Below are positions 5,329 through 31,066 of a stretch of 32,000 bases of DNA, one piece after another (position 1 is the first letter of the stretch; every line of letters starts with the position of its first letter). Source of the DNA: Pseudodesulfovibrio mercurii (GTDB taxonomy: Bacteria > Desulfobacterota > Desulfovibrionia > Desulfovibrionales > Desulfovibrionaceae); assembly GCF_000189295.2 (NCBI RefSeq), contig NC_016803.1, positions 1,740,001-1,772,000 of the forward strand, given 5' to 3'. Below the pieces are notes generated by a model that saw only the letters and a program-made list of their open reading frames with translations, was not told the DNA's origin and did not search any database. The translations under genes and the position numbers were made by a program.

Positions 5329-5357
5329 GGCCGGGCCCCGTGCCCGGCCTTTTTTTT
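5329..5357 (+). terminator. Rho-independent terminator (GGCCGGGC...GCCCGGCC-T8)
   Basis: 8-bp GC stem followed by eight T residues at 5350-5357, 20 nt after the stop of the CII-like gene. Confidence 0.75.
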
Positions 5358-5393
5358 CGGGGTGCGCACGGCGCGGGAAAGTACCCTGACTTC

Positions 5394-5422
5394 TTGCCAA
5401 TATCGTCCGTTCGGCTTAGAAA
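5394..5422 (+). promoter_or_regulatory. Candidate sigma70-type promoter for the kinase operon (TTGCCA-N17-TAGAAA)
   Basis: Hexamers at 5394-5399 and 5417-5422, downstream of the terminator and about 40 nt upstream of ATG 5463. Pattern only. Confidence 0.3.
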
Positions 5423-5462
5423 TACAAAGGTATTCTCCAACCCGAGGACGGACGCGCGACCC

Positions 5463-7473
<2,011 letters not shown>

Positions 7474-7481
<8 letters not shown>

Positions 7482-8007
7482 TCTGTCCGATTGTCGTCTG
7501 TTGTGGTGTCACGGCTCCCTGAGCCGTCCCTGGGGAACCAAGAGCATGGCCCTGGCCGACCTGGCCGGGGAGTTCGGCCTGGTCATGGAGGGCCCGGACT
7601 TCAGCGACCTCGCGGGCCCGGACGACCGGGTGGAGCGCCTGCTGACCCTCCTGGCCGGGGACGACCGGCCCGTCATCCTGGCCGGATCGTCCATGGGCGG
7701 CTACGTGGCCGCGGCCACGGCCCTGCGCACGCCGGTCCAGTCCCTGTTCCTGCTGGCCCCGGCCTTCTATTTCCCCGGCTACGCCGTGCACGTCTTTCCG
7801 GACCTGCCCGACCGCGTGACCGTGGTCCACGGCTGGGACGACGACGTGGTCCCGGCGGACAACACCATCCGCTTCGCCCGGACCCACAAGGCGACCCTGC
7901 ACATGCTCCGCGACGGCCACCGCCTGGAGGGGTCCACGGAGACCCTGTGCGTCCTGTTCGCCCGGTTCCTGGCCGGCACGAAACGGGACCTGGAGCAACA
8001 CGCATGA
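7474..8007 (+). CDS. Small alpha/beta-fold hydrolase (YqiA-like esterase family)
   Basis: ATG 7474 preceded by GAGGAGGA and overlapping the kinase stop by 8 nt. Nucleophile elbow GSSMGG; VHGWDDDVVP and DGHRL supply candidate Asp and His. Confidence 0.75.
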
Positions 8008-9167: not shown

Positions 9168-9169
9168 CC

Positions 9170-15662: not shown

Positions 15663-16394
15663 TTATAGAAACGCGTGGGCCAGACAGACCAGGGCGGCGG
15701 CGACGATAATGAGTTGGAGAATCCTTCGGAACGCATTGACATTGATCCTTTTCACGAGGGGAAAGGCGCACAGCGAGCCCAGCATGGTGGGAGGAAAGCC
15801 GTAGAGGGCATAGTGAAGAATATCCGGCGTATAATAGCCGGAATACGCCTGCAGGCCGCAGGTTATGGCCCCGCGCACGATGAAGAAGACGCCCAATGTG
15901 CCCAGGAACTCGCGCGGCTCCCATCCGGCATACAGCCCGTAGGCGCCGACAGGTGGACCATCGAAGGAAATGGACGTCCCCAGCAACCCGGACAGGAATC
16001 CCGCCGCACCACCGGCCTTCCAGGAATCCCCGCCAACCCGGCGCACGTGGAAGAAGTGCTGCCAGCACACGAAAAACACCAACAATATGCCAACGGACGC
16101 CTGCAAGATGTTTCCGGGAAGCAGCAACAAAACGAACAGCCCCGCCACGGACCCTGGCACGGCTCCCGCGAGCATGGGCAACAGGGCCGATACGCGGCAA
16201 AAACGAAAATGCATGAGCATGATCGAGCCGTCCATGGCCATGTTGAGGATGCAGCTGAGCACGATGACGTCCTGAATGGGAAGGAAAAGCGCGGCGATGG
16301 GCACGGCGAACATGGCGCCGCCGATACCGCTCGCGCCCGAGATGAACCCGCCCGCGAACCACGCGCTCATAACCACGATGACATTAGTATCCAT
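15663..16394 (-). CDS. TauE/SafE (DUF81) family anion/sulfite-exporter-like membrane protein
   Basis: Start MDTNVIVVMSAWFAGGFISGASGIGGAMFAVP (ATG at 16394). Polytopic, with repeated G-rich TM motifs (GFLSGLLGTS) typical of the family. Confidence 0.8.
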   Translation of the reverse strand: MDTNVIVVMSAWFAGGFISGASGIGGAMFAVPIAALFLPIQDVIVLSCILNMAMDGSIMLMHFRFCRVSALLPMLAGAVPGSVAGLFVLLLLPGNILQASVGILLVFFVCWQHFFHVRRVGGDSWKAGGAAGFLSGLLGTSISFDGPPVGAYGLYAGWEPREFLGTLGVFFIVRGAITCGLQAYSGYYTPDILHYALYGFPPTMLGSLCAFPLVKRINVNAFRRILQLIIVAAALVCLAHAFL

Positions 16395-16541: not shown

Positions 16542-17111
16542 TCAGCCGCGAGCCCCGGCGTTTCCAGCTTCCCGGATGGCGGCCTCGCGTTGCGCCAGGG
16601 AGCCGAAGTCGAGTTTGCGCATCAGCAGCTCATAGCGCTCCATGGCAAGATTCCGATCTTCGCGCCGTGCGGCCGCAACACAGTCCGCATAGGCGGCGAT
16701 GGTGGCCGAGGAATAGGTTTGCAGTTCCGCAAACAGATAACGGCGAAAGGCGTCGCCGCCATCCGGCGCTACGACGTGGGGGAAGTCGGAGGCCACGGCG
16801 TCGCGCCAAGCGCTCTCCGTGCGCGCGATGTCGGAAATGCGGGGATCGGGGTTGAAGGGCGTGATCTGGCCCTCCATCACCGCGTATTTCTCGGTCATGA
16901 AATTTCGGCCCTCCGCTTCGCCGCGCCGCAGGTCCTGCGCATAGCTCTCCACAAAGGCGTCGGAAAGCACGGCGTGGGTGATCTCGCGCATGAGCCGGAA
17001 AGCCTCCGGCCTCTCCTGGCAGTCGGCGCGGCCGCCTCGATTGTGAACCCTCTGGAACATACCCAGTTCCCACTCGACCACTTCCGCCAATAGATCCATG
17101 CGTGTCACCAT
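16542..17111 (-). CDS. Conserved hypothetical protein (possibly DUF4125-like; family assignment from memory)
   Basis: 189 aa, ATG at 17111 with an AAGGAG RBS 6 nt upstream. Soluble, helical-looking, no recognisable catalytic motif. Confidence 0.65.
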   Translation of the reverse strand: MVTRMDLLAEVVEWELGMFQRVHNRGGRADCQERPEAFRLMREITHAVLSDAFVESYAQDLRRGEAEGRNFMTEKYAVMEGQITPFNPDPRISDIARTESAWRDAVASDFPHVVAPDGGDAFRRYLFAELQTYSSATIAAYADCVAAARREDRNLAMERYELLMRKLDFGSLAQREAAIREAGNAGARG

Positions 17112-17277
17112 GCCCGGCTCCTTCTTGTTGCTCCAATGAGTGCAGCCGGGTATGCAAGGCCGGGGCCGATATCGTGCGATTCATCAAAAAATCATTTATT
17201 TAAGTCAATTACATCAACGTGGAGACGAAAGTGCAAGACGGTTCCATGCGCAGCCATCAAGAAAAATTTGCATTCGG

Positions 17278-17310
17278 GAAAAAATCTATCCGAAAAGAAG
17301 ATTTTTTTTC
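17278..17310. promoter_or_regulatory. Candidate UAS for the locus sigma54 activator (AAAAAATCT-N11-AGATTTTTT)
   Basis: Inverted repeat centred about 95 bp upstream of the 17387 sigma54 promoter. The core AATCT-ATCCG-AAAAGAAGATT resembles AATCT-TTTCT-AAAAGAAAGATT at 21572-21593. Confidence 0.4.
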
Positions 17311-17386: not shown

Positions 17387-17402
17387 TGGCACATGCGTTG
17401 CA
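17387..17402 (+). promoter_or_regulatory. Sigma54 promoter TGGCACATGCGTTGCA
   Basis: TGGCAC-N5-TTGCA with canonical GG/GC spacing, preceded by a very AT-rich tract (17320-17370). About 125 nt upstream of the permease ATG. Confidence 0.75.
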
Positions 17403-17528
17403 AATTTCAGCGCAGTCGTGACGTCCACGCCCGACTCCCGCAATCGCCCGGCCTTTCCGGACGCGGGAGTGCGGAAAAGGACTTGTGGGGAACACACCAT
17501 TTACCTAATCGAGGAGGTTAGGAGAGCT

Positions 17529-19025
17529 ATGTCCACGGAAACCCAGTTAGCAAGAACGCTTACTCCAATTCAGGTCTGCGCACTCGCGCTCGGCTCCATC
17601 GTCGGGTGGGGCTGTTTCGTACTCCCAGGCGACGTTTTCCTGCCCAACGCCGGCCCCATGGGCACTCTGATCGGTTTTGCGGTCGGCGCATTTCTGATTA
17701 GCTTTGTGGCCATCGCCTACAGCTACATGATCAAATACGCGCCGGTGGCGGGCGGCGAGTTCGCCTGGGCCTACATCGGGTTCGGCCCCACCGCCTCGTT
17801 CATCTGCGGCTGGGCGCTCATCATCGGGTACATCGCCATCATCGCCATCAACATTTCGGCCCTGTCCCTGATCTGCCGGTTCCTGATGCCGGGCTTCCTC
17901 GAGTTCGGCAGCCTCTACACCCTGGCGGGCTGGAAGGTCTACACCGGCGAGGTCCTCGTCATGAGCATCGCCGTCATCGCCTTCGGGGTCATGAATTATC
18001 GCGGCGTCAGCGCCGCCGGCAAGCTGCAGGTGGTCCTGGCCTTCATGCTCACCTTCGGCATCCTCTCGCTGTTCTTCGGCGTCAACGCGCTGGAGACCGC
18101 CCACGTCTCGAACCTGACCCCGCTTTTTGCCGAGGGCAAGTCCCCGTTCACCTGCGTCCTCATCGTCTTCGCCATCTCTCCCTTCCTTTTCGTCGGATTC
18201 GACACCGTGCCCCAGACGGCCGAGGAATTCGCCTTCAATCCCTCGAAGTCGCGCAACATCATGCTCATCGCCATCCTCGTGGGCATGGTCCTGTATAGCC
18301 TGGTGACGCTGTCCGTCGGCCTCGCCATTCCCTATCCCGACATGATCAAGCAGATGGCGGCCGAGAAGATGGCCGGCGGCACGGCCTGGGCCACCGCCGC
18401 GGCGGCCAACATGGCCTTCGGCAAGCTCGGCTCCGCCATTCTCGCCTGCGCCGTGCTGGGCGCGGTCTGCACCGGCATCAACGGCTTCTACGTCGCCTCC
18501 ACCCGCCTGCTGCTCGCCATGGCGCGCAGCAAGATTCTGCCCTCCTGGTTCGGCGACATCCACCCGAAGTTCCACACCCCGTACAAGGCCATCATATTCA
18601 CGATCATCATCGTGCTCCTGACCCCGTACGCCGGTCGCTCCGCCGTCGGCTGGACCGTGGACATGAGCGCCGTGGGCACGGCCGTGGGCTACCTGTTCAC
18701 CTGCCTGGCCGCCTACCGCATGCTGTGGCATGTCAACGAGGCGGGCGCCAGACTGAAGCGATTCTACTGCACGGTTGGCGCACTGACCTCCATCCTGTGC
18801 CTGCTCCTGCTCTGCATCCCGGGTTCGCCCGCAGCCATCGCCGAAGCGCCGGCGTGGTGCCTGGTCGTCTGGGTCGCGATGGGCATCAGCTTCTACTTCT
18901 CCAGCCGCAAGGTCTGGTCGCAAATGCCCGAGCCGGAACTTCGGCGGGATATCCTCGGAACGGAAGATATCAAGGTGTTCTTCAAGGGGGCCAAAAACCC
19001 CGAGATCGCCGTCCCCGCCGACTAG
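17529..19025 (+). CDS. APC-superfamily amino acid/polyamine-type permease
   Basis: Start MSTETQLARTLTPIQVCALALGSIVGWGCFVLPG (ATG 17529, GAGGAGG/TAGGAGAG upstream). 498 aa, about 12 TM segments. The track start at 17379 would include the promoter. Confidence 0.88.
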   Translation: MSTETQLARTLTPIQVCALALGSIVGWGCFVLPGDVFLPNAGPMGTLIGFAVGAFLISFVAIAYSYMIKYAPVAGGEFAWAYIGFGPTASFICGWALIIGYIAIIAINISALSLICRFLMPGFLEFGSLYTLAGWKVYTGEVLVMSIAVIAFGVMNYRGVSAAGKLQVVLAFMLTFGILSLFFGVNALETAHVSNLTPLFAEGKSPFTCVLIVFAISPFLFVGFDTVPQTAEEFAFNPSKSRNIMLIAILVGMVLYSLVTLSVGLAIPYPDMIKQMAAEKMAGGTAWATAAAANMAFGKLGSAILACAVLGAVCTGINGFYVASTRLLLAMARSKILPSWFGDIHPKFHTPYKAIIFTIIIVLLTPYAGRSAVGWTVDMSAVGTAVGYLFTCLAAYRMLWHVNEAGARLKRFYCTVGALTSILCLLLLCIPGSPAAIAEAPAWCLVVWVAMGISFYFSSRKVWSQMPEPELRRDILGTEDIKVFFKGAKNPEIAVPAD

Positions 19026-19088
19026 CCCCTATCGGCCATCCCCCCCGCCCCACCCGGCGGGGGGGCCAGGCCGATTGCCGGAACACTC

Positions 19089-20003
19089 ATGTTGCGGAAA
19101 TCCATCCATGCGGGCGGGCCGCTGCTCATCCTCTCCGGCGCGCTCTGTTTCAGCACCACGGGCTTCGCCTCCGCGCTGGTGGTCGCCGACGGAGCCTCCG
19201 TGCTCGCCGTCGGCGCCGTACGCATGCTGATCGGCGGCGCGGCACTGGCAGCCTGGTGCGCCTGGCGGGGCATCCTGCCGAAACGAGGCAGCTGGAGCGC
19301 GCGGGACCTGCTGCCGCCCACCCTTGCCCTGGCCGCCTATCAACTGCTTTTCTTCAAGGGAACGAATACGGCGGGCGTGGCCCTGGGCACGGTGATGAGC
19401 ATCGGCATCTCGCCCATCGCCGTCGCCGTACTGAACTGGATCGTCAACGCGGAAAGACCGGCGCGAGCGTGGTATCCGGCCACCATCGTCGCCCTGTTCG
19501 GCCTGGTGCTCCTGAACTGGACGGACGGCTCGCCGGACCGGCTTCGCTCCCTGCTGCCTTCCATCGGGGCCGGGTTCGCGTACGCCGTCTACGTGGTTTT
19601 CAGCAAGCCATTGCTGCGCTACGCCCCGGAAACCGGCATCATGGAGGTTTGTCTGCTGTGCGGCCTCTGCCTTTCGCCGTTTCTCTTCCTGTCGCCCATG
19701 CGCTGGCTGGCCTCGGGCACGGGCATTGCCGTTGCGCTGGACCTCGGCTTGGTCACGGCCGCTCTCGCGTTCACGCTCATGCTCGGCGGGCTCCGCACCA
19801 CTCCGGCTCCGACGGCCGCCACCCTGGGACTGGCCGAACCGCTCTGCGCCGCGCTGCTCGGCTTCCTTTGCCTGAACGAGGCGGTCACGCCGCATGCGGT
19901 CGTCGGCATCGCCTGTCTCATGGGAGGAGCCCTGATCCTCTCTGTCTGGCCATCTCCTTGCAATTCGTTGAACAATCGGCCAAAAATCCATAACCGGACG
20001 TGA
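19089..20003 (+). CDS. DMT-superfamily (EamA/RhaT-like) transporter
   Basis: 304 aa, about 10 TM segments, two EamA-like halves (ILSGALCFSTTG...; GAGFAYAVYVVFSKPLL...). Confidence 0.82.
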   Translation: MLRKSIHAGGPLLILSGALCFSTTGFASALVVADGASVLAVGAVRMLIGGAALAAWCAWRGILPKRGSWSARDLLPPTLALAAYQLLFFKGTNTAGVALGTVMSIGISPIAVAVLNWIVNAERPARAWYPATIVALFGLVLLNWTDGSPDRLRSLLPSIGAGFAYAVYVVFSKPLLRYAPETGIMEVCLLCGLCLSPFLFLSPMRWLASGTGIAVALDLGLVTAALAFTLMLGGLRTTPAPTAATLGLAEPLCAALLGFLCLNEAVTPHAVVGIACLMGGALILSVWPSPCNSLNNRPKIHNRT

Positions 20004-20026
20004 GAAGCGAATGGAGAGAATGAACG

Positions 20027-21523
20027 ATGAAGGACTTCGACATAGGCACACTGCGTAACGTCAGCCGAAAAATCGTTTTGACACCAGAAATGCAGGCCCT
20101 ATGGGAATCCATGGCCGTAGGGGTAGCCGTGGTCAACGCCCAGGGCGTCTGCGAATACATGAACTCCATACAGCGCCGCACGGATGGGTTCACCCACATC
20201 AACGTAGTGGGCCAACACATCACGAACCTCTATCTCCCCCACGAACGCGATCTCATTCCGACCATGGAGTGCCTCCAGAAGAAGGCCCCCCTGCTGAAAC
20301 GCGCCTACTGGTACAAGACCACGAACAACTATCTGGCCAGCACGGTCACCGATTTTTTCCCTCTCTTCGACAACGGCGAAATAGACGGCTGCATCGCGTT
20401 CATCATCTGGCTCGGCCCCACCCTGATCAATGGCAAACGGGACAGATGCAAGGCCCCGGCCTTTTCCGGCCATACCTCCGGCCTCTATACCTTTGACAGC
20501 ATCGTGGGCCGCAACGCGCAGCTGCTTGACGTCATCCATGCGGCCAAGGCCGCCGCGAAGACCTCGGCATCGGTCATGATCTGGGGAGAATCGGGTGTGG
20601 GCAAGGAGGTTTTCGCCCAAGGCATCCACTCCGAAAGCGAGCGAAGCGGCAAGCCGTTCATCCCCGTCAACTGCGCGGCCATTCCGGAGAACCTGCTGGA
20701 AGGCATTCTGTTCGGCACCGTCAAGGGAGCCTATACCGACGCCACGGACAAGGCCGGCCTTTTCGAAAAGGCCGACGGCGGCACCCTCCTGCTCGACGAG
20801 CTGAACTCCATGCCCCTGACCCTGCAGACCAAGCTGTTGCGGGTTCTGCAGGAAAAACGCGTCTGCCGCCTCGGCTCCTATTCGGAGATTCCGGTGGATG
20901 TCCGCATCGTCAGCGTGCTGAACGAGCCGCCCCTGGCCGCCGTGGAGCGCGGCATCCTGCGCCTCGATCTCTTCTACCGGCTGGCCGTGGTCGGTCTGGA
21001 GATTCCGCCCCTGCGCGAGCGCAAGGACGACATCCCCATCCTGGCCCACTCCTTCGTCGAGGTCTCGGATCTGCGCGCCGATCACAAGTCGATCCGTTTC
21101 TCGGACGACGTGTTCCAGCAATTCCTGGAATACAGCTGGCCGGGCAACATCCGCGAGTTGGCGCACGTCATCGAATGCTGTCTGGTCATGCTCGGTTCCG
21201 CGGACGTCATCACCGACTCGTGTCTGCCGCCGCACTTCCGGAAGGCGCACATGCATGCGGAACACGCTGCCGCACCGGCGGCCTCCACCGCGTCCGTTCC
21301 GGTCGAAGCGAGCGCCGTCAGGTCCTATTTCGACTACGCCGAGGTGCAGCGCGGCGAGGTCGTCCCCCTCAAGCAATGTCTGAACGACTATGAGCGCCAC
21401 TGCATCCAGAACGTGCTGCGCGTGACCGGCGGCAACGTCGCCAAGGCCGCCCGCATCTTCCGGATGACGGCGGCTGGCCTTCGGTACCGCATCAAGACGC
21501 TCGACATCTCCGACGGCTACTGA
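20027..21523 (+). CDS. Sigma54-dependent transcriptional activator (PAS sensor - AAA+ - Fis-type HTH)
   Basis: Walker A GESGVGKE. GAFTGA-region variant FGTVKGAYTDA. GGTLLLDEL, LLRVLQEKRVCRLGS, WPGNIRELAHVIE. C-terminal HTH GGNVAKAARIFRMTAAGLRYRIK. N-terminal PAS-like region, no receiver domain. Confidence 0.9.
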   Translation: MKDFDIGTLRNVSRKIVLTPEMQALWESMAVGVAVVNAQGVCEYMNSIQRRTDGFTHINVVGQHITNLYLPHERDLIPTMECLQKKAPLLKRAYWYKTTNNYLASTVTDFFPLFDNGEIDGCIAFIIWLGPTLINGKRDRCKAPAFSGHTSGLYTFDSIVGRNAQLLDVIHAAKAAAKTSASVMIWGESGVGKEVFAQGIHSESERSGKPFIPVNCAAIPENLLEGILFGTVKGAYTDATDKAGLFEKADGGTLLLDELNSMPLTLQTKLLRVLQEKRVCRLGSYSEIPVDVRIVSVLNEPPLAAVERGILRLDLFYRLAVVGLEIPPLRERKDDIPILAHSFVEVSDLRADHKSIRFSDDVFQQFLEYSWPGNIRELAHVIECCLVMLGSADVITDSCLPPHFRKAHMHAEHAAAPAASTASVPVEASAVRSYFDYAEVQRGEVVPLKQCLNDYERHCIQNVLRVTGGNVAKAARIFRMTAAGLRYRIKTLDISDGY

Positions 21524-21568
21524 GCCGCCTTCGCCGACACCACCGACCCGCCCCGGCGGCCGGGCGAA

Positions 21569-21597
21569 AGGAATCTTTTCTAAAAGAAAGATTTCCT
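21569..21597. promoter_or_regulatory. Candidate UAS (imperfect palindrome AGGAATCTTTTCT-AAA-AGAAAGATTTCCT)
   Basis: Centred about 104 bp upstream of the 21686 sigma54 promoter. Shares its core with the 17278-17310 site. Confidence 0.4.
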
Positions 21598-21685
21598 CCT
21601 AATCGCAAAGAGATATTGCTCTCCCTCATCGGGGTTTTCTCTAAAATAGTCCCAAAAATCAAGGATGTTAAGCAAAACACCCGAC

Positions 21686-21701
21686 TGGCACGCCTTGTGC
21701 T
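21686..21701 (+). promoter_or_regulatory. Sigma54 promoter TGGCACGCCTTGTGCT
   Basis: The -24 element TGGCACG is exact. The -12 element is GTGC instead of TTGC, with correct spacing. About 65 nt upstream of ATG 21767. Confidence 0.6.
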
Positions 21702-21766
21702 ACCCGGCAAGGTATTCGCCCCATTTGCGGCGTAAATGTACAAAACCCAAACCGGGAGAAATCGCT

Positions 21767-24268
21767 ATGACGCAAATCGAGTCCAACAACTCCAAGAAGC
21801 AGGCCATAGATGCAGTGGCGAGCATGCCTTTCGACATGACAAAGGTGGCCACAGGCCCCACGGCGTACAAGATCAACTGGGAGACGATTAACGCGAGGTT
21901 CAAGGAATACAAGGACTTTTTAATGGAAGCGCCTCAGGTGATGGACCCGGAGCGCCTCCAGTTCCTGCACGATGTATACACCGAGTACAACGGTGAGCCC
22001 GTTGTATACATCCGCGCCAGGCTGCTTGAGCGGGTGCTGACCCAGAAGAAGATTTTTCTCGACGGCAACCCCATCGTCGGCACCCTCACGGGCACGCGTT
22101 GCGGCGTCTATCCCTATCCGGAGTGGAACGTCCAGTGGATCAAGGACGAGATGCAGATGGCCAAGATGACGTCTCTTGGCGAAATGAAGATTCCCCGGGA
22201 GACCGAGGACCTGCTGAAGCAGACCTACAAGGAATGGAAGGGACGCACCTGCATCGACCTGAACAACAAGATGTTCAAGGATATGTTCGGGTTCGATTCG
22301 CACCCCTACCACAAGGCCGGCATGTTCTACGAGAACGTCAGCGTGGCCAGCGGCTCCGGCATCGCCGACTACCCCAAGGTCCTGAACCACGGCATGCGCG
22401 CCGTTCTCGACGACCTGAAGGAGCGCCTGCGCAATTGTCCCACCACGCTGGCGGACAAGGAGCGTTTCGACCTCTACCGTTCCATGATCGTGGTCTGCGA
22501 GGCCGTCATCGCCCATTCGCACCGCTACGCCGAACTGGTGGAAAATGCCGCCGCCGAGGAGACCGACCCCAAGAACAAGGCCGAACTCCTGGAGATCGCG
22601 GAGATCTGCCGCCGCGTGCCCGAATTCCCGGCCCGCAACTTCCGCGAGGCCATCCAGTCCTTCTGGTTCATGCACGTGTGCATCGAGACCGAGCAGATGG
22701 CCTGCGCCACCTCGCCCGGCCGTTTCGGCCAGTACATGTATCCCTTCTACAAGAAGGACATCGAAGAGGGTAAGCTGAACCGTGAGCAGGTCGTGGCCCT
22801 GCTGAAGCTGCAATGGATCAAGCACATGGAGCTGGCCGAGTACCAGGGCGGCTCCTACGCCAAGACCCTTTCCGGCCACACCGGCCAGACCATGACCATC
22901 GGCGGCCTGGACAAGGACGGACGCGACGCCAGCACCGAACTCGAGGTGTTGCTGCTCGAGACCCAGATCCAAGCGCGCGGCATCCAGCCGACCCTGACCC
23001 TGCTCTATCATCCGAAGCTGTCCGAGTCCTACATGGGCAAGGTCGTGCAGTGCATCCGCGGCGGCTCGGGCCAGCCCCAGATCCTCAACAACACCGCCGT
23101 GATCGAGCGCACCCTGGCCCGTTTCGCCCAATACAAGGACGGCATCACCCTGGAGGACGCCCGCAACTGCGGCAACTACGGCTGCGTATCCACCGGCATC
23201 TGCGGCAAGGGCAGCTTCATCACCCAGGAGGACCAGCCCTGTCTCGCCAAGATCATAGAAATGGTGATGTACAACGGCAAGGACCCGCGGACCAAGAAGC
23301 AACTGGGCGTGGAGACCGGCGACATCACCTCGTTCCAGAGCTTCGATGAGCTGTACGACGCCTACAAGTGCCAGTTGAAGCACCTCTTCACCGTCTCGCG
23401 CAAGCATTCCGACCTGTCGCAGATGGCCCGCCTCCAGGTGGTTCCCAGCGTGCTGCGCTCGGTGATGTACGACGGCTGCATCGAAAAGGGCATGTGCGAG
23501 GAGGCCGGGGGAACCCGCTATCCGCAGGTCAACCCGATCATGACCGCCGGTATCGACGCGGCGAACTCGCTGCTGGCCATCAAGCACCTCGTCTTCGACA
23601 CCAGAAAGATCACCATGGAGCAGCTCATGACGGCCATCAAGGCCAACTTCGAGGGATACGAGGACATCCGCAAGATGTGCTACGACGCGCCCAAGCACGG
23701 CAACGACTATCCGGAGATCGAGGAATTCGTGCAGCAGTACTACCACGACGTGGACGAAATCCACAATTCCATCGGCCCCGATTGTTTCGGCTACCGCACT
23801 CCGCTCGACGCCTACTCCCTGTCGTACCACAACTACTTCGGCGCGCTCATGGGAGCGCTTCCGACCGGCCGCAAGGCGGGTGTCGCCCTCACCGACGGCT
23901 CGGTCTCGGCCATGCCCGGCACGGACCACGAGGGCATAACCGCCCTGATCAAGGCCGGCGCGACGGCCATCGACACCGTCCGCTACGGCGCGAACCACTT
24001 CAACGTCAAGCTGGTCCCCGCCGCCCTTGAAGGCCCGGCCGGCACGCGTCTGCTGAGCTCGCTGCTCAAGACATACTGTGATCTCGGCGGCTCGCACATC
24101 CAGTTCAACGTGGTAACGTCCGCCACCCTGAAGAAGGCTCAGGAGGTCCCCCAGGAATACAAGGATCTCGTGGTCCGAGTGGCGGGCTTCAGCGCCTACT
24201 TCACCCGTTTGGACAAGGGCGTCCAGGATGAAATCGTGAAGCGTACCGAATACTCGCAGGCCTGTTAG
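21767..24268 (+). CDS. Glycyl radical enzyme (PFL2-type), substrate unknown
   Basis: Start MTQIESNN (ATG 21767, GGGAGA RBS), 833 aa. Glycyl radical motif VVRVAGFSAYF (Gly807 by my count). Cys loop NCGNYGCVSTG (Cys473), 334 residues upstream of the Gly. LPTGRKAG motif. Confidence 0.92.
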   Translation: MTQIESNNSKKQAIDAVASMPFDMTKVATGPTAYKINWETINARFKEYKDFLMEAPQVMDPERLQFLHDVYTEYNGEPVVYIRARLLERVLTQKKIFLDGNPIVGTLTGTRCGVYPYPEWNVQWIKDEMQMAKMTSLGEMKIPRETEDLLKQTYKEWKGRTCIDLNNKMFKDMFGFDSHPYHKAGMFYENVSVASGSGIADYPKVLNHGMRAVLDDLKERLRNCPTTLADKERFDLYRSMIVVCEAVIAHSHRYAELVENAAAEETDPKNKAELLEIAEICRRVPEFPARNFREAIQSFWFMHVCIETEQMACATSPGRFGQYMYPFYKKDIEEGKLNREQVVALLKLQWIKHMELAEYQGGSYAKTLSGHTGQTMTIGGLDKDGRDASTELEVLLLETQIQARGIQPTLTLLYHPKLSESYMGKVVQCIRGGSGQPQILNNTAVIERTLARFAQYKDGITLEDARNCGNYGCVSTGICGKGSFITQEDQPCLAKIIEMVMYNGKDPRTKKQLGVETGDITSFQSFDELYDAYKCQLKHLFTVSRKHSDLSQMARLQVVPSVLRSVMYDGCIEKGMCEEAGGTRYPQVNPIMTAGIDAANSLLAIKHLVFDTRKITMEQLMTAIKANFEGYEDIRKMCYDAPKHGNDYPEIEEFVQQYYHDVDEIHNSIGPDCFGYRTPLDAYSLSYHNYFGALMGALPTGRKAGVALTDGSVSAMPGTDHEGITALIKAGATAIDTVRYGANHFNVKLVPAALEGPAGTRLLSSLLKTYCDLGGSHIQFNVVTSATLKKAQEVPQEYKDLVVRVAGFSAYFTRLDKGVQDEIVKRTEYSQAC

Positions 24269-24283
24269 GGCTCCACTACCTCA

Positions 24284-24322
24284 GGGGGTGCGCCGCCCCC
24301 AACCTCCCGGCGGCGCACCCCC
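24284..24322 (+). promoter_or_regulatory. Strong intercistronic stem-loop between the GRE and activase genes
   Basis: Perfect 14-bp stem GGGGGTGCGCCGCC / GGCGGCGCACCCCC with an 11-nt loop and no U-tract (followed by CCTTGATCC). Confidence 0.6.
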
Positions 24323-24352
24323 CCTTGATCCACAAACGATCGGGAGCGATCC

Positions 24353-25249
24353 ATGTTGAAAGGAATGGTTTACAACATCCAGCGCATGTCGGTGCAGGAC
24401 GGACCGGGGCTGCGCACCACCGTCTTTCTGAAAGGCTGCCCGCTGCGCTGCCTCTGGTGCAGCAACCCGGAGTCCCAGGCGTTCACCCCGCAGCTGATGT
24501 ATTTCGAAAATCTCTGCACGGGATGCGGCGCCTGCGAAACGGCCTGTCCGAACGGAGCCGTGACCCGGCTGCGGAACGGCAAGTTCGGACGCGATCCGGA
24601 GCAATGCACGGACTGCGGCGCCTGTGCGTCCGTGTGCCCCAGCGGCGCGCGCGACATGTCGGGCAGGCCGATGACCGTCGAGGAGGTCATGCAGGTCGTT
24701 CGCAAGGACGGGACGTTCTACCTCAACTCCGGCGGCGGCGTGACCTTCGGCGGCGGAGAACCCACGGCAGGCGGGGATTTCTTCCTCTCCCTGCTCGAAC
24801 AGGCGCACAACGAGGCCTACCACTGCACGGTGGACACCTGCGGCCAGTGCCCGGAGGACCGCTTCCGGAAAACCATCGAGTTGGCGGACCTGCTGCTCTT
24901 CGACTGCAAACATATGGACCCCGCCCGGCACAGGGAACTGACCGGGCAGGACAACACGCTCATCCTGAAGAACCTTCGCAACGCCCTGAGCTCCGACACG
25001 CCGGTGCGCATCCGCATGCCGCTCATGCCCGGCCTGAACGATACGGAGGAAAACCTGGCGGCCATGGCCGATTTCCTGGGGGGCTTCGGCCTCCGGGAAG
25101 TCGAGGTCATGCCCTGCCACTTTTTCGGCCGCAACAAATATCTCGCCTTGAATCGGGCTCTACCCCTCGTGCGTCAGTACGAACCCGATGAGTTCAAGGC
25201 GATCAACGAACGCTTCCTGCGCCACGGCCTCAGGCCGGTCGTCGTGTAG
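24353..25249 (+). CDS. Glycyl-radical enzyme activating protein (radical SAM)
   Basis: GPGLRTTVFLKGCPLRCLWCSNPE (CX3CX2C). Two ferredoxin-like motifs, CTGCGACETACP and CTDCGACASVCP. GGGVTFGGGEP. 298 aa. Confidence 0.92.
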   Translation: MLKGMVYNIQRMSVQDGPGLRTTVFLKGCPLRCLWCSNPESQAFTPQLMYFENLCTGCGACETACPNGAVTRLRNGKFGRDPEQCTDCGACASVCPSGARDMSGRPMTVEEVMQVVRKDGTFYLNSGGGVTFGGGEPTAGGDFFLSLLEQAHNEAYHCTVDTCGQCPEDRFRKTIELADLLLFDCKHMDPARHRELTGQDNTLILKNLRNALSSDTPVRIRMPLMPGLNDTEENLAAMADFLGGFGLREVEVMPCHFFGRNKYLALNRALPLVRQYEPDEFKAINERFLRHGLRPVVV

Positions 25250-25272
25250 CGGATAAAAAAAACGAGGAACGC

Positions 25273-25569
25273 ATGTTTACCCTGAACGCGGCGGACGCCA
25301 TTCTCGAAAGGCTCCGCGAGATACTTGAGGACGAGGACGAAGGCGTCTGTGTCCGCCTGCGCGAATACAGCGTCGGCGGTGGATGACACAGCAAGGTCGT
25401 GCTTGGTCTAGGCACGGACGAACCCGATGAGGAGGACGACGAACGGATCGACGTGAAGGGCGTCCCGTTCATCGCCGAAAAGGACTTTCTGCTGAATCAC
25501 GGCGGAAACTACGAATTGACCCTGAACGAAGACCAGCAAATGGTCTTGAACGCGCTCGCGGGAGCGTGA
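25273..25569 (+). CDS. HesB/IscA-like small selenoprotein (in-frame TGA at 25384-25386 read as Sec38)
   Basis: ATG 25273 lies 23 nt after the activase stop. Hand translation: MFTLNAADAILERLREILEDEDEGVCVRLREYSVGGG-U-HSKVVLGLGTDEPDEEDDERIDVKGVPFIAEKDFLLNHGGNYELTLNEDQQMVLNALAGA, 98 codons. Collinear with the 98-aa paralog at 25634, where Cys38 aligns with the TGA. Absent from the ORF track. Confidence 0.7.
25396..25419 (+). promoter_or_regulatory. SECIS-like hairpin downstream of the TGA
   Basis: GUCGUGC / GCACG(G)AC stem of 7 bp with one bulge, and a 9-nt loop UUGGUCUAG. The stem starts 10 nt after the UGA. GGUC occupies +22 to +25 relative to the U of UGA. Confidence 0.5.
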
Positions 25570-25633
25570 CCGGAACCGGCTGCGGCGTCGGCGCGGCAGA
25601 GGGCCATCCCCGCAAGCGCGAAAAGGAGAAGAC

Positions 25634-25930
25634 ATGTTCACAGTGGATACGACGAAAGAGCTTCTCGAAAAGCTTCGCGCCCTGTTGGCGGAGGAAGACC
25701 CGGAGACCTGCGTGCGCCTGCGCGAGTACAATGCCGGATGCGGCTGCAACAGCAAGATCCGGCTCGGCCTGGGGCTGGACGAGCCTGAAGATGAGGACGA
25801 ACGGATCAGCGTGCGGGAAATCCCGTTTATCGCGGAAAAGGATTTTCTGCTGAAGCACGGCAGATCCTATGCTCTGGCTTTCGACGAAAATAGGGAAACC
25901 GTCCTCACCGCGCTGGATGCGTCGGATTAG
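25634..25930 (+). CDS. HesB/IscA-like small protein, Cys-containing paralog
   Basis: 98 aa: MFTVDTTKELLEKLRALLAEEDPETCVRLREYNAGCGCNSKIRLGLGLDEP...IPFIAEKDFLLKHG. GAAAAGGAGAAGAC upstream of the ATG. Resembles the N-terminal two thirds of IscA/HesB (xRLxVxxxGCxG) and lacks the C-terminal CGC. Confidence 0.8.
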   Translation: MFTVDTTKELLEKLRALLAEEDPETCVRLREYNAGCGCNSKIRLGLGLDEPEDEDERISVREIPFIAEKDFLLKHGRSYALAFDENRETVLTALDASD

Positions 25931-25987
25931 GCCGAAGCCGCCCGGCGAAGCCGGCCGCATTCCCGCACCGCAATCCGGCGCACCACC

Positions 25988-26027
25988 AATCCCCCTTCCG
26001 ATGGCCGGAAGGGGGATTCCCTTTTCC
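25988..26027 (+). terminator. Terminator of the GRE operon (AATCCCCCTTCCG-ATGGC-CGGAAGGGGGATT then CCCTTTTCC)
   Basis: Perfect 13-bp stem followed by an interrupted T tract. Confidence 0.6.
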
Positions 26028-26636: not shown

Positions 26637-29600
26637 CTATCCGCTCTCCCCTCCCCTTGGCCGTCGGGCCTCGATGGTCTTGCCCGGCTTGAGTTCGAAG
26701 GGTTGGCCGAAGATTTCCACGGGCACGATCTTGTCGCCCTGGTGGAAGGCGGTCATGTTGACGCGGTCCTGTTCGACGACGAGGTCGAACCAGATGGACC
26801 GCCAGATGAAGGACAGACGCATTTCGCCCCAGTGTACGGGCGGGTCCGGGTCGATGCGCATGGGCGTGGCGGACAGGTTGAGCCCGGCGTAGTCCTGTTT
26901 GAGGACTTCGAGGGTCCCGGCCATGACGCCGGTGTGGATGCCTTCCACGGTGGTGCCGCCCTGGGTGTCGTAGATATCGGACTGCATGGCCTCCATGAAC
27001 CAGTCCCAGGAGACGTTGCTCGGGTAGATGTACCGGGCGATGACGGCGTGGACGACCTTGGACAGGGTGGAGCCGTGGCTGGTCCGCTTTTCGTAGAAGT
27101 CGTAGTTGTCCTTGAGCAGCTTGAGGGGGTCGGGCACGTCGTGGCCGAGCTTGCGCAGGATGCGGGCCACCTCGTCGGGTTCGAGGATGTACCAGGTCAT
27201 CAGGGTGTCGGCCTGCTTGGCGACCTTGTAGTTGTCGGGCGAGTCGCCTTCGGCCTTGAGGATGCGGTCCATGCGGTGGATGGAGTAGAAGCGCTGGCGG
27301 TAGGAATCCCAGTCCAGCTCGGGCAGGTCCATGTAGCCGTCGAACTGGCTGATGATGCCGTCCTCGGAGACGATGACGTTGAGCCTGGTGGTCATATCCC
27401 GCCACTTGGCGACCTCCTCGTCGGTCAGGCCGATGTGCGCGGTGATCTGCTTCTTCAGGCGGGGCGGCAGGGTTTCGAGCACGGACAGGGCCTTTTCCAG
27501 GAGCCAGACGACCATGATGTTGGTGTAGGCGTTGTCGCGCAGGCCGGACTCGTCGGAGCCGGGCAGTTTTTCGTGGAACTCGTCCGGGCCCATGACCCCG
27601 TCGATATGGTAGGCGCCGGAGGTTTCGTCGAGGGTGGCGATGTCGCCCCAGAAGCGGGCGATGTCGAGCATCAGCTCCGCGCCGTATTCGCGCAGGAAGG
27701 CCTGGTCGCCGGTCCAGGAGACGTAACGCCAGGCGTTGACGAACACGGCGATGGACACGTGCCGCTGGCGGCGGGACAGGTCCGGCCCCCAGGTCTTGGA
27801 CTCGGGATTGTAGTGGACTTCCTGGGTCTCCTCGCTGCCGTCGTCGGCGGTCTGCCAGGGGAACATGGCCCCCGTATAGTCGTTTTCGCGGGCGTATTCG
27901 CGGGCCGCGTCGAGGCGGTTGTAGCGGTACATGAGCAGGGCCTTCGAGATGTCCGGGAAGTTGGCGTCGAAGAAGGGCAGGATGTAGACCTCGTCCCAGA
28001 AGATGTGGCCCCGGTAGGCCTCGCCGGACAGGCCACGGGCGGGCATGCCCGCGTCGCGGCCCACGTTGTGCGGGCTGGCCGTGACCAGCAGGTGGTAGAC
28101 GTGGAGGCGCAGCACGCGCTGGACGAAGCGGTCGCCCTTGACCCGTATGTCCGCCTTTTGCCAGAGGTTTTTCCATGACTTGGCGTGGGGGCCGAAGACG
28201 CCCTTGAAGGTCTTCACGCCCTTGAGCCCATCCAGGCACAGGTCGCGCAGGTCGCCGGGTTCGCGATCCAGAGAGGTGCGCACGTGGACGAACTTTTCCA
28301 GGCCGTAGCAGTGGTTCTCCTTGACCTGGACGCAGATTTCCTCGGAGACCCTGGCCCGGTCCTGGACTACCTCCTTGCGCACCTCGATGGGCTTGCCGTC
28401 CTCGAGCAGGCGGGTCTTGGCGGCCATGACGATCTGGTAGCGCGAGTGGGAGGTCTCCACGTGCAGATAGATGCCGTCGCCCGCCTTGCCGCCGCCCACC
28501 CGGTTGAGGTGGCGGGTGTTCAGGCTGGCATAACGGGCCACGCCCTCGTTGCTGACGTTGCCGTCCAGCGAGGAACGGAAAGTCAGCTTGGCGGCGTAGT
28601 TAAGCGGGGTGAAGTCGAATTGCAGGGCGAGCAGGTGGGGGTCGGCCATGGAGGCCACGCGCCGGGAGGATATGCGGGTGATGCGGCCCACCTGATCGCG
28701 GACCACGAGGTGGCGTTCCATGACCGCCACGCGCATATTCAGGCGGTGGGAATAGCTGAGGATTTCCATGGACAGGGGCGAGACGAACTCGCCGTTGCCG
28801 ATCTTGAAGGCCACGGGCAGCCAGTTGGGGCAGTTGACCAGGTCGTTGTTCCAGATCTCGCGCCCCTCCACGTCGCTGGGGGTCTTGTTGAAGATGCCCG
28901 AGACGTAGGTGCCGGGGTAGAAGTAGTAGGAAGAGCACTCGCACTCGTAGGCCCCGCGCGAGCCTAGGTAGCCGTTGCCCACGCAGGTCAGGGTCTCGCG
29001 CAGCTTCTCGTCGCCCGGCTCGAAGCCGTGGTAGGTCAGGAACCATTCGTCCGTGGCCATGCCGGACTCGAACCACTCCATGAGGTCGTCCACGGTGATC
29101 TCGCCCAGGTCGGACACGACCATGTCGGCCCCGAACCGCTTCAGCATCTCGCCGCCGATGTTCCGGGCGATGCCGAGCGTCAGGCCGAAGTTGCCCGCGC
29201 ATCCGGCCTGGACGCCGGACAGGGAGTCCTCGACCACGGCGCACTCGCCGGGATGGAGGCCCATCCTTTCGGCGGCGGCCACGAAGATGTCGGGATCGGG
29301 CTTGCCCTTGAGGTCGAGTTCGGCCGAGACCACGCCGTCCACGTGGGCGTCGAACAGGGTGGTCAGCCCGGCCAGCTCCAGAACGAGCATGCCGTTGCGG
29401 CTGGAGGTGGCCAGGGCCACGAGCACGCCGTTGCGCTTGAGCTCCCTGACCAGGGCCACGGAGGAGTCGAAGACCTCGGGCCCCTGCTCCTTGAGGATTT
29501 CCTGGAAAAGCGCGTTCTTCTTGTTGCCGATGGCGCAGACCGTGTCGTAGCCCGGCGGGTCGTCCGGCTCGCCGGGGGCCAGCCGGATGTTGCGGGACTT

Positions 29601-29819: not shown

Positions 29820-29858
29820 GGATCACTCCTTTGAATGGTTGATTCTCCGGTGTCCGGG

Positions 29859-31055: not shown

Positions 31056-31066
31056 CGGCCCTCCTT

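Follow-up and report, generated by a model that had tools for sequence, protein, structure and literature searches.

A sigma-54-controlled transport and glycyl radical enzyme module of an uncharacterised clade in Pseudodesulfovibrio mercurii

What reaction is catalysed by a glycyl radical enzyme (GRE) which is encoded with its own transporters and regulator, and whose catalytic Cys loop resembles neither that of the characterised eliminases nor that of pyruvate formate-lyase (PFL), is the question raised by this locus. It lies in a window of 32,000 nt of the genome of P. mercurii, a sulfate reducer (contig NC_016803.1, positions 1,740,001 to 1,772,000). The locus is tentatively explained as an inducible uptake-and-cleavage module around an uncharacterised clade of PFL2-type GREs, the DVU2272 type; this reading is plausible, if somewhat short of probable.

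Gene Content and Extent of the Module

The following genes and key residues were annotated:
15663..16394, minus strand: TauE/SafE (TSUP) family membrane transporter (Pfam PF01925, E 4e-29)
16542..17111, minus strand: DUF4125 protein, 189 aa, all-alpha (Pfam PF13526, E 9e-45)
17529..19025, plus strand: APC-superfamily permease, 498 aa (Pfam AA_permease_2, E 3e-32)
19089..20003, plus strand: EamA/DMT transporter, 304 aa (Pfam EamA)
20027..21523, plus strand: sigma-54 activator (enhancer-binding protein, EBP; Sigma54_activat E 6e-59, HTH_8)
21767..24268, plus strand: GRE, 833 aa (PFL-like E 7e-157, Gly_radical E 2e-26)
22703-22705, 23183-23185 and 24185-24187, plus strand: GRE key residues Cys313, Cys473 and Gly807, read from the sequence
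24353..25249, plus strand: GRE activase, radical SAM, two ferredoxin-like cluster motifs (TIGR02494, 348 bits vs cutoff 174)
25273..25569, plus strand: ErpA-related (HesB-like) selenoprotein, 98 aa (NCBIfam NF033940 ErpA_rel, 142 bits vs cutoff 65)
25634..25930, plus strand: ErpA-related protein, Cys form, 98 aa (NF033940 ErpA_rel, 137 bits vs cutoff 65)

The region 17387-26027 has seven co-directional genes behind two sigma-54 promoters, in the order APC permease, EamA/DMT transporter, sigma-54 activator, GRE, activase, and two ErpA/HesB-like proteins. This arrangement in two units, given in the original prediction, was borne out by gene calls, domains, and -24/-12 sites. Genes for shell proteins and for aldehyde or alcohol dehydrogenases were not detected in the window, as had been stated, and gene content supports the view of a self-contained, sigma-54/EBP-controlled transport-plus-GRE unit. 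Its extent was underestimated, as orthologue loci also conserve the opposite-strand genes TauE and DUF4125 as parts of the module. No conserved catabolic enzyme was found downstream in the 80 GRE-family loci compared.

Conservation of the predicted neighbourhood held for the ErpA-like genes, linked to the GRE in 29/29 orthologue loci, and for the APC permease (13/15), but not for the DMT transporter (3/15), which is therefore an accessory part; TauE, within 5 kb in 11/15, is an addition. The APC, TauE, and DMT counts refer to the 15 orthologue loci with full flanks. DUF4125 is linked to the GRE in both groups of the family, and no fold relative of its AF2 model (pLDDT 92.6) was found in PDB.

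Promoters and Regulator

17153..17168, minus strand: candidate sigma-54 promoter of the DUF4125-TauE unit, CGGCCCCGGCCTTGCA, 2 mismatches, GG-N10-GC kept
17279..17307, no strand: AT-rich inverted repeat, candidate site 1 for activator binding, some 90 nt 5' of the -24 element
17387..17402, plus strand: sigma-54 promoter of the permease unit, TGGCACATGCGTTGCA, -24/-12, 0 mismatches
21570..21596, no strand: AT-rich palindrome, candidate activator binding site 2, GGAATCTTTTCTAAAAGAAAGATTTCC
21686..21701, plus strand: sigma-54 promoter of the GRE unit, TGGCACGCCTTGTGCT, 1 mismatch
25988..26018, plus strand: terminator-like hairpin, 13-bp, GC-rich, dG -26.8 kcal/mol, z -3.2

Comparable sigma-54 sites were present upstream of the APC gene in 17/18 loci and upstream of the GRE gene in 53/81 loci, against a background of 5.5%. 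The candidate promoter of the DUF4125-TauE unit is weak on its own; comparable sites precede DUF4125 in six other orthologue loci. About 90 nt upstream of both the permease and GRE promoters, the motif AAAAGAA(A)GATTT has two matches against 0.01 expected, and AAAAGAAGATTT is located at 17293-17304 inside the first inverted repeat. Orthologue loci repeatedly have elements of AAAGAAA/TTTCTTT type 5' of the GRE promoter. The terminator proposed at the end of the second unit is represented by the 13-bp hairpin, but its U-tract is weak and it was missed by a simple terminator scan. Similarly, the assignment of a PAS-type sigma-54 activator stands for the Sigma54_activat and HTH_8 domains, while the match of the N-terminal PAS-like sensor is weak (E 0.007). 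The activator shares its GAYTDA loop with 23 EBPs of related loci; among 37 EBPs of D. vulgaris, only DVU2275 has it.

The Glycyl Radical Enzyme and Its Family

The Cys loop of the GRE is NYGCVSTG (Cys473, Ser475) and the glycyl motif is VVRVAGFS (Gly807), both as originally read. The loop has neither the CXE glutamate, kept by every characterised GRE eliminase and isomerase (review PMC13450708), nor the Cys-Cys pair of PFL, which confirms the prediction. Its description as an orphan enzyme was not upheld, as 200 relatives of 45-97% identity form a large conserved family, among them proteins of Desulfovibrio piger, D. desulfuricans, Mailhella, and Bilophila. The loop is kept in the family as GCV[G/S/A/T]TG, with Gly in 89, Ser in 74, Ala in 25, and Thr in 11 relatives at Cys+2; a lone Glu comes from an outlier. 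Nor is such a loop rare, since Glu at Cys+2 is missing in 72 of the 150 nearest GRE cluster representatives. A loop of this type is absent from the 2026 GRE review (PMC13450708). By its sequence, the GRE is a member of an uncharacterised, widespread PFL2-type clade, and the module is a good lead for enzyme discovery and not a one-off oddity.

As anticipated, no characterised or solved GRE among those compared was closer than about 33% identity (PDB relatives 26-33%), and no curated family model (NCBIfam equivalogs) was passed, all scores being far under cutoff. The proposal of chemistry outside the known GRE classes is no more than possible. Source annotations name the relatives formate C-acetyltransferase, and a 2015 regulon paper concurs (PMC4641369) with the DVU2272 annotation, so that a pyruvate or 2-oxoacid formate-lyase has to be considered. 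The V-S after the catalytic Cys is PFL-like and the protein has a further Cys outside the loop, but the adjacent pair is missing, the PFL model TIGR01255 matches the C-terminal radical domain only (67 bits vs cutoff 994), PFL structures match weakly, and dedicated amino-acid-type importers are hard to square with pyruvate. A formate-lyase is thus very improbable.

Candidate Active-Site Residues and Substrate

Active-site positions were mapped by pairwise alignment of the GRE with HypD, in which all 14 marker residues were recovered; equivalences among HypD, IslA, and CutC were taken from published ones (PMC8473560). Cys313 (conserved in 199/200) aligns with HypD Asp278, Glu488 (183/200) adjoins the positions of GD Asp447 and HypD Tyr450, and Asp681 (acidic in 199/200) aligns with IslA Arg678; His371 and Arg564 are each kept in 198/200. 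The statement that there is no second Cys and no Glu therefore holds within the loop only, as invariant Cys313, Glu488, and Asp681 occur elsewhere. Cys313, His371, Glu488, and Asp681 are candidate catalytic residues, and the pocket is predicted to be acidic. These assignments are alignments to enzymes about 30% identical, and GRE barrels shift strands, making such predictions unreliable (PMC8473560). About one quarter of all columns is invariant in a 40-sequence GRE alignment, so the invariance of Cys313 and the others alone is no proof of catalysis.

An acidic pocket would suit a radical decarboxylase, for which the APC permease would import or exchange an amino-acid-like substrate and the amine would leave via DMT or APC, giving proton-motive force or pH relief. 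The nearest solved relatives of the permease are cationic amino acid transporters (E 8e-20), the DMT protein matches a carboxylate/amino acid/amine transporter model (under cutoff), no downstream enzymes are encoded, and the decarboxylase PhdB also has no Glu at Cys+2 (Gln484; PMC13450708). Known GRE decarboxylases, however, all use arylacetates that give stabilised benzylic radicals (PMC13450708), HPAD and IAD models score far under cutoff, and the DMT gene is rare in orthologue loci. Sister subfamilies have TRAP, ABC (SsuA-like), or MFS importers, and the energy-consuming TRAP and ABC types clash with an exchange-driven energy scheme. This coupling is considered distinctly improbable. The sister importers suit anionic substrates no less than amines, which counts against the uptake-and-cleavage reading.

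The conserved TauE gene would fit an organosulfonate sulfite-lyase that cleaves the C-S bond of an aminosulfonate or alkanesulfonate (cysteate, homotaurine, 3-sulfopropionate), with sulfite as respiratory electron acceptor and TauE moving sulfite or sulfonate. Cleavage could be homolytic and PFL-like, the sulfite radical anion regaining an H atom from Cys, and the Glu base would therefore be dispensable; downstream enzymes would be unnecessary as well. In sister loci, the binding protein of an ABC transporter is nearest to the SsuA family (73 bits, under cutoff), and one such locus, in Rhodomicrobium, is a compact ABC-GRE-activase operon. GRE orthologues occur in sulfate and sulfite reducers only, Bilophila and D. 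piger among them, and equal reasoning led to IseG. Against this, more distant relatives occur in non-sulfite-reducing Azoarcus, Rhodomicrobium, and Acidobacteriota, sulfate reducers have many TSUP/TauE proteins, of no predictable function, and taurine as electron acceptor did not support growth of D. piger DSM 749, which has the orthologous cluster. Also missing is the Arg/Gln/Arg triad that binds sulfonate in IslA, IseG, and HpsG, its positions being occupied by Ala/Ser194, invariant Gly198, and invariant acidic 681. A sulfite-lyase is unlikely, although it deserves some weight.

ErpA-Like Proteins

The first ErpA-like gene is open only with TGA at 25384-25386 read as selenocysteine (Sec38), and a SECIS-like hairpin is located at 25396-25419. 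In 34 homologous genes, this column is TGA in 23 and TGC or TGT in the others. The in-frame TGA was not stated in the original prediction. The second protein has Cys26, Cys36, and Cys38 and is 100% identical to DND132_1585; its Cys38 falls in the alignment column of the GGGC ligand Cys in E. coli ErpA.

In wider-family loci, ErpA_rel is linked to the GRE in 25/27 and the activase in 23/27. By this linkage the ErpA-like genes equal the activase in their tie to the GRE and are core partners; their products may therefore be functional partners, contrary to the claim that small subunits are lacking. Most likely, the Sec/Cys pair carries or supplies an Fe-S cluster for the three-cluster activase, or is a selenol/thiol redox partner.

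A redox role of the pair would be central to a two-thiol or selenol reaction, a net reductase or an isomerase/epimerase. Cys313 would be second H-atom donor or redox partner of Cys473, as in the Cys pair of anaerobic ribonucleotide reductase, and the acidic ErpA-like proteins would re-reduce the active site. In favour are Cys313 at a position that contacts substrate in HypD, the linkage given above, the retention of Cys26 and Cys/Sec38 only, with the C-terminal CGC cluster ligands of ErpA gone, and the C_GCAxxG_C_C and ferredoxin-nitroreductase proteins, putatively redox, which recur in sister loci. Selenocysteine is typical of redox sites (PMC1794560). Such chemistry has no precedent among PFL-like GREs, the fold and GGG(C/U) motif are equally compatible with Fe-S binding by a dimer, and the Rhodomicrobium operon has no ErpA-like gene; this reading is rather improbable.

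Proposed Function

By sequence, a single-component sigma-54 activator accompanies AT-rich palindromes some 90 nt 5' of -24/-12 promoters, and such promoters lead three units: the permease (with DMT and activator), GRE-activase-two ErpA-like, and probably the divergent DUF4125-TauE pair. In the preferred uptake-and-cleavage reading, a small ligand would bind the activator, the APC permease would take up this ligand, and the activase would install the radical on Gly807. Because Cys+2 is a small residue, the Glu-assisted ketyl route of eliminases and isomerases would be closed to the enzyme; the family keeps the acidic residue 681, Glu488, His371, and Cys313 at substrate-contact positions of HypD, GD, and IslA. 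The best guess is radical beta-elimination or fragmentation (C-N, or C-S) of an imported amino-bearing or cationic small molecule, in which no hydroxyl would have to be deprotonated for the leaving group to depart and the Glu base would be unused. The reaction would end in central metabolites, or its products would leave through the DMT and TauE transporters, and this is proposed as the reason that no downstream enzymes are encoded. To our knowledge, no GRE is a direct precedent for such chemistry on aliphatic amino compounds.

Comparison with Known Systems

The ErpA-like proteins share with A-type Fe-S carriers (ErpA, IscA) and HesB-like proteins the GGG(C/U) motif, which aligns with the first ErpA ligand Cys. 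They differ in their length of about 98 aa, in Cys26 instead of the CGC ligands, and in systematically adjoining this GRE family. Sec/Cys alternation and occurrence in Desulfovibrio were catalogued for the HesB-like selenoprotein family in 2006; no mention of the ErpA-like/GRE link was found in the literature consulted. The small Fe-S subunits of HPAD (gamma) and BSS/MASS (beta, gamma, delta) are likewise Cys-rich, GRE-adjacent, and conserved with the GRE, with no sequence relationship to the ErpA-like proteins.

HypD, HpyG/HpzG, GD, PD, CutC, IslA/IseG, HpsG, HplG, and YbiW/PflD have the same fold as the GRE (TM 0.83-0.88, 26-33% identity). Common to the 1,2-eliminases/isomerases and the GRE are Gly and Cys loops and an activase that carries additional ferredoxin-like clusters; a transporter and a regulator of their own are often encoded alongside. 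In the present family, the CXE glutamate is replaced by G/S/A/T, HypD Asp278 by Cys, and IslA Arg678 by Asp or Glu, and the site of HypD His160, IslA Gln193, and CutC Asp216 is an invariant Gly in a G-S-G loop. PFL (PflB/TdcE) also has V-S after the catalytic Cys and no use of a general-base Glu, and its homolytic fragmentation with a radical leaving group is a conceptual precedent, but the GRE has no adjacent second Cys and its similarity is limited to the radical domain.

The closest parallel in regulation is the DVU2275 / DVU2272-DVU2269 "PFL" regulon of D. vulgaris Hildenborough, for which sigma-54/EBP control was predicted in 2015 and the function was read as pyruvate metabolism from annotation only (Kazakov et al., PMC4641369). 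DVU2272 is probably orthologous to the present GRE. Both systems combine the rare GAYTDA loop in a single-component EBP with a palindromic, AT-rich site upstream and a sigma-54 promoter leading to a four-gene operon with the "PFL" gene and activase first. In P. mercurii, the EBP gene is not divergent but co-directional and closes the permease unit.

Gene content of the module

A gene module built around a glycyl radical enzyme (GRE) was recognized in the window, and domain and family-model searches recovered the seven plus-strand genes of the original prediction. Two minus-strand genes located just upstream of them, overlooked there, are also part of the module.

Genes of the module, in window coordinates
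15663-16394, minus strand, TauE/SafE gene
16542-17111, minus strand, DUF4125 gene
17529-19025, plus strand, APC permease (AA_permease_2)
19089-20003, plus strand, EamA/DMT transporter (EamA)
20027-21523, plus strand, sigma-54 activator (Sigma54_activat, PF00158, E 6e-59; HTH_8; PAS only at E 0.007)
21767-24268, plus strand, GRE, 833 aa (PFL-like, PF02901, E 7e-157; Gly_radical, PF01228, E 2e-26)
24353-25249, plus strand, radical-SAM activase, 85 nt downstream of the GRE gene (TIGR02494, 348 bits against a cutoff of 174)
25273-25569, plus strand, small protein A, 98 aa (NF033940 ErpA_rel, 142 bits against a cutoff of 65)
25634-25930, plus strand, small protein B, 98 aa (NF033940 ErpA_rel, 137 bits against a cutoff of 65)

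Regulatory parts, transport genes, radical machinery, and partner genes are all present. The GRE unit ends at a strong hairpin at 25988-26018, which was not called in a simple terminator scan because its U-tract is weak. Coded on the opposite strand at 26637-31202 is a disaccharide-phosphorylase locus, in which a gene for a 1060-aa fusion of HAD (beta-phosphoglucomutase-like) and GH65 phosphorylase adjoins a trehalose-6-phosphate phosphatase-like gene (T6PP). A series of three genes at 7491-12081 (plus strand), coding for a rhodanese-domain protein, an NMT1/SsuA-like binding protein, and a dCache-HAMP-SpoIIE phosphatase in this order, may be a sensing module.

Enzyme family and Cys loop

The enzyme has the PFL-like barrel and the glycine radical domain of the GRE superfamily, and its Cys loop NYG-C473-V-S475-T-G and glycine motif RVAGFS (Gly807) read exactly as predicted. 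The glycine motif with Gly807 is kept in 197 of 200 sequences compared. Cys473 at the tip of the loop, which aligns with Cys434 of HypD and Cys433 of GD, is kept in all 200. Of 1101 database relatives at E <= 1e-50, the top 120 have identities of 52% or more and bear generic names only. When one genome per species was scanned, 324 relatives were obtained. Among the best 80 of these, whose loci were examined, orthologues (at least 65% identity, 29 loci) include those of D. piger ATCC 29098, D. desulfuricans, Mailhella, Maridesulfovibrio, Halodesulfovibrio, Pseudodesulfovibrio, and Desulfobaculum. Relatives with 45-61% identity were found in Bilophila wadsworthia, Desulfosporosinus, Azoarcus, and Rhodomicrobium, and one is a second paralogue of D. 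piger.

In the motif G-C473-V-x-T-G, the Cys+2 residue is G in 89, S in 74, A in 25, and T in 11 of the 200 sequences; the lone Glu (1/200) belongs to an unrelated second GRE at one locus (L012). When 1.84 billion cluster representatives were searched with a profile, 10,596 GRE relatives were obtained, with Glu at Cys+2 in 77 and another residue in 72 of the best 150 (P0156-P0304; D 12, Q 10, S 9, H 9, G 5, and others). The window's family is one full-length representative there (P0009), and Cys313, Arg564, and the acidic residue 681 recur in its sister clusters P0156-P0159. Judged from these sequences, absence of the CXE glutamate is common in uncharacterised GRE space, and the CXE rule describes characterised enzymes only. 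The loop had been called non-canonical, which holds against characterised GREs but not against GREs at large.

The signature in the 200 sequences comprises G196-S-G198, Tyr359, and S369-G-H371-T-G-Q374. Cys313 is kept in 199, Glu488 in 183, Arg564 in 198, and an acidic residue 681 in 199 of them; further signature residues are S684, S686, H688, and N689 as well as T709-D710-G-S712-V-S714. Residues 190, 194, 368, 487, 489, 683, and 687, likely specificity-setting, form about ten signatures, and therefore the family probably spans several substrates. The window's enzyme falls in the polar group (N-A-L-S-Q-D-Q-D-Y-L-Y).

Predicted active site

High identity to a characterised GRE was sought by PDB sequence search, Foldseek, and NCBIfam equivalogs, and no close relative was found. 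PDB sequence matches were all about equally distant (33% identity to HypD), and the AF2 model of the GRE (pLDDT 87.6, pTM 0.90) superposed on every PFL2-type structure with TM 0.83-0.88 and 26-32% identity. None of the equivalogs was approached (score/cutoff: HypD 498/1100, IAD 487/1100, HpsG 470/1000, CutC 416/1050, PFL 67/994). The structure 9rco, named "glycyl radical protein", was considered as a new enzyme and rejected, as it is propanediol dehydratase.

Residues were mapped via the HypD alignment, in which all 14 marker residues were correct, and via published structural equivalences. These assignments are read from sequence at about 30% identity, and the IslA authors caution that strand shifts make such residue predictions unreliable (PMC8473560).

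Predicted residue equivalences (characterised enzymes, then the window's GRE)
HypD Arg156 / IslA Arg189: Ala194
HypD His160 / IslA Gln193 / CutC Asp216: Gly198
HypD Asp278 (contacts substrate hydroxyl and amine): Cys313
HypD Ser334...Asp339/Phe340: SGHTGQ motif
HypD Glu436: Ser475
GD Asp447: Gln487, with the conserved Glu488 as next residue
HypD Tyr450: Gln490
IslA Arg678: Asp681
HypD Thr645 / IslA Phe682: Leu685

The pocket lining is predicted to include one Cys, one His, and two acidic residues. The claimed absence of a Glu and of a second Cys is thus right for the loop, but not for the predicted pocket.

Gene neighbourhood and the ErpA-like pair

Among all 29 orthologue loci, ErpA_rel and activase genes are found in 29/29 and the sigma-54 enhancer-binding protein (EBP) in 27/29. 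In the 15 orthologue loci with full flanks of ±5 kb, ErpA_rel, activase, and EBP are each present in 15, the APC permease in 13, TauE in 11, DUF4125 in 7, and DMT in 3. The 27 wider-family loci with full flanks have ErpA_rel in 25, activase in 23, EBP in 16, and DUF4125 in 9. Counted from GRE loci, the ErpA-like genes accompany the GRE as consistently as the activase gene does, which is the most original of the present observations. A protein search with small protein B (ErpA2) reached close relatives only, and a search for contigs encoding it gave a single 2-kb contig.

In the wider family, the transporter is replaced by TRAP, by ABC with an SsuA-like binding protein, or by MFS, and genes for DUF169, TPR proteins, ferredoxin-nitroreductase, and a C_GCAxxG_C_C protein recur. 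No conserved catabolic enzyme was found in the GRE loci examined (best 80 of 324). In Rhodomicrobium udaipurense (L071:24-5002), genes for an ABC permease, an ABC ATPase, a GRE of this family (48% identity), and its activase form a compact operon that has no ErpA-like gene; for its ABC type, aliphatic sulfonate transporters were the best match, below cutoff. The DUF4125 protein, repeatedly encoded near the GRE family, gave a confident all-alpha AF2 model (pLDDT 92.6). No fold relative of this model was found in the PDB (best E 1.5, TM < 0.25), and therefore it gives no hint at function. Two GRE genes lie side by side at four loci (L012, L073, L074, and L049), and the second GRE of L012 is CXE-type and unrelated to the window's family. 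A ferredoxin-nitroreductase fusion gene is located at 932-1915 (minus strand), 20 kb from the GRE gene; its homologue directly adjoins a paralogous GRE, together with an MFS transporter, in loci of the D. piger / Bilophila type.

The reading frame of small protein A is continuous only with the TGA at 25384-25386 decoded, and automatic gene callers break the gene into pieces of 37 aa and 56 aa; selenocysteine (Sec) was missed in the original prediction. The triplet aligns with Cys38 of paralogue B. TGA occupies the same column in 23 of 34 homologous genes of related loci, with the frame kept downstream, and the other 11 have TGC/TGT. We read this in-frame TGA as a selenocysteine codon. A hairpin with a GGUCU apical loop (25396-25419) begins 12 nt past the TGA; its folding z of 0.41 is no better than shuffled. 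Presumably, its G23/U24 spacing matches the E. coli fdhF SECIS. An Rfam search of the window gave no match at all, and no SECIS model.

Both small proteins pass the NF033940 family model with Sec or Cys at the same column, as in the HesB-like selenoprotein group, and small protein B is 100% identical to DND132_1585. HesB-like selenoproteins of D. vulgaris and D. desulfuricans were catalogued in 2006 (PMC1794560). In related loci, the pair is often one Sec form and one Cys form. The only conserved cysteines are Cys26 and Cys/Sec38, of which the latter aligns with the GGGC ligand Cys of E. coli ErpA. A-type Fe-S carriers (IscA/ErpA) have three ligand cysteines; the C-terminal CGC of ErpA is without counterpart because the ErpA-like proteins end before that position, and the ErpA model PRK13623 gave 17-22 bits against a cutoff of 117. 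The pair could hold a cluster across a dimer, or serve as a redox couple.

Sigma-54-dependent control

Of two sigma-54 sites, the one at 17387-17402 (TGGCACATGCGTTGCA) is perfect and the one at 21686-21701 has one mismatch. About 90 nt upstream of each, AAAAGAA(A)GATTT stands in an AT-rich inverted repeat (two occurrences in the window, 0.01 expected). DUF4125 is preceded by a weak sigma-54-like site (17168-17153), with better ones before DUF4125 in six other orthologue loci. Of 81 loci, 53 have a sigma-54 site upstream of the GRE, and for the APC gene this holds in 17 of 18, against a background of 5.5% of random 500-nt windows; AAAGAAA/TTTCTTT AT-rich elements recur 5' of the GRE promoter in relatives' loci. 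A further perfect -24/-12 site (TGGCACGCCGGTTGCT), unrelated to the module, was found at 4993-5008 (plus strand), about 330 nt 5' of a hybrid histidine kinase/response regulator gene (5340-7481).

The activator is a sigma-54 EBP with an AAA+ sigma-54 interaction domain, a GAYTDA loop (GAFTGA-type), and HTH_8; the GAYTDA loop is common to it and 23 EBPs of related loci. In D. vulgaris, the single-component EBP DVU2275 has the sole GAYTDA loop among 37 EBPs and was predicted to activate the sigma-54 operon DVU2272-DVU2269 via an AT-rich palindrome (Kazakov et al. 2015, PMC4641369). The operon was taken to comprise "PFL", its activase, and two further genes, and was assigned to pyruvate metabolism (PMC4641369); the DVU2272 protein was found at low levels in D. 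vulgaris. The window's EBP has the same loop and its four-gene GRE unit fits the layout of this operon, and therefore the regulatory architecture is already on record.

Proposed function and significance

The original prediction is confirmed as an observation. Its interpretation, a self-contained catabolic module for an imported amino-acid-like or zwitterionic compound with chemistry outside the known GRE classes, is supported in part. The regulation was already predicted and the selenoprotein partner already catalogued. We tentatively favour, at somewhat below even chances, an amino or cationic substrate handled by ligand-switched import and GRE cleavage without a Glu-assisted ketyl. The ligand-sensing activator would turn on import and the GRE, Gly807 and Cys473 would abstract hydrogen, and cleavage would proceed without Glu-assisted ketyl formation. 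Three features favour such a substrate: the permease most closely resembles cationic amino acid transporters, the pocket is predicted to be acidic, and an acidic residue stands in for the Arg of IslA. Fragmentation may be homolytic and PFL-like, which, we infer, would account for the base not being needed.

It is a more doubtful proposal that the DVU2272-type clade forms a new functional GRE class, working without the Cys-loop glutamate via Cys313, His371, Glu488, and Asp681, needing the Sec/Cys ErpA-like pair and possibly DUF4125 as an unrecognised accessory, and opening a common amino or sulfonated metabolite to gut and marine sulfidogens (D. piger, Bilophila, Mailhella, Pseudodesulfovibrio) by undescribed chemistry. 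One option would be homolytic C-S or C-N fragmentation of a substrate without an activating hydroxyl.

GREs of gut sulfidogens are repeatedly behind health-relevant chemistry, such as H2S formation from isethionate and DHPS, the release of trimethylamine from choline, and the use of hydroxyproline. Both the main Desulfovibrionaceae of the human gut and strain ND132, a mercury-methylating model, carry the clade. Its current database name is "pyruvate formate-lyase", and a substrate assignment would close a gap in what is mapped of the metabolism of these organisms. No functional report on the clade was found in literature on DUF4125, the CXE motif, D. piger GREs, ND132, and new sulfonate GREs. 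The active site is unlike every characterised class, so the enzyme could add a new reaction type. For the HesB-like selenoprotein family, orphan for 20 years, a tight GRE link would be the first functional context. Uncharacterised GRE clades are numerous and commonly have non-CXE loops, which makes the enzyme a well-defined target rather than a surprise.

Comparison with known glycyl radical enzymes

All characterised eliminases and isomerases keep CXE (2026 review, PMC13450708), whereas the window's GRE has Ser475 in place of the Glu at Cys+2. A two-thiol/selenol reductase or isomerase is a quite unlikely reading. A decarboxylase is about as improbable. Phenylacetate decarboxylase has Gln at Cys+2 (PMC13450708). 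The window's GRE scored 405 against 1150 (NF033715) and 487 against 1100 (NF033718) with the models of HPAD and IAD, and an HpdC-like small-subunit gene is absent from its locus.

A sulfonate C-S lyase would suit the TauE gene of the module, the SsuA-like ABC systems of relatives, and the sulfidogenic hosts, and is still unlikely. The Arg/Gln/Arg sulfonate triad of the GRE C-S lyases (IslA/IseG/HpsG) appears to be missing, with Ala194, Gly198, and Asp681 at the mapped positions, and TSUP proteins are unspecific in nature. D. piger DSM 749 carries the cluster, yet does not respire taurine; with the missing triad, this led us to down-weight a taurine sulfite-lyase in particular.

X-succinate synthases have a C-M-S loop in TutD and MasD, against C-V-S here, with 26-27% identity to BSS and MASS, and no BSS-type subunits were seen near the GRE. 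Pyruvate formate-lyase has an adjacent Cys-Cys pair where the window's GRE has G-C, and its model TIGR01255 gave 67 bits against a cutoff of 994; a true formate-lyase is very improbable. Cleavage of an amino or cationic substrate remains the favoured reading, and the window's GRE is a variant inside a known enzyme superfamily.
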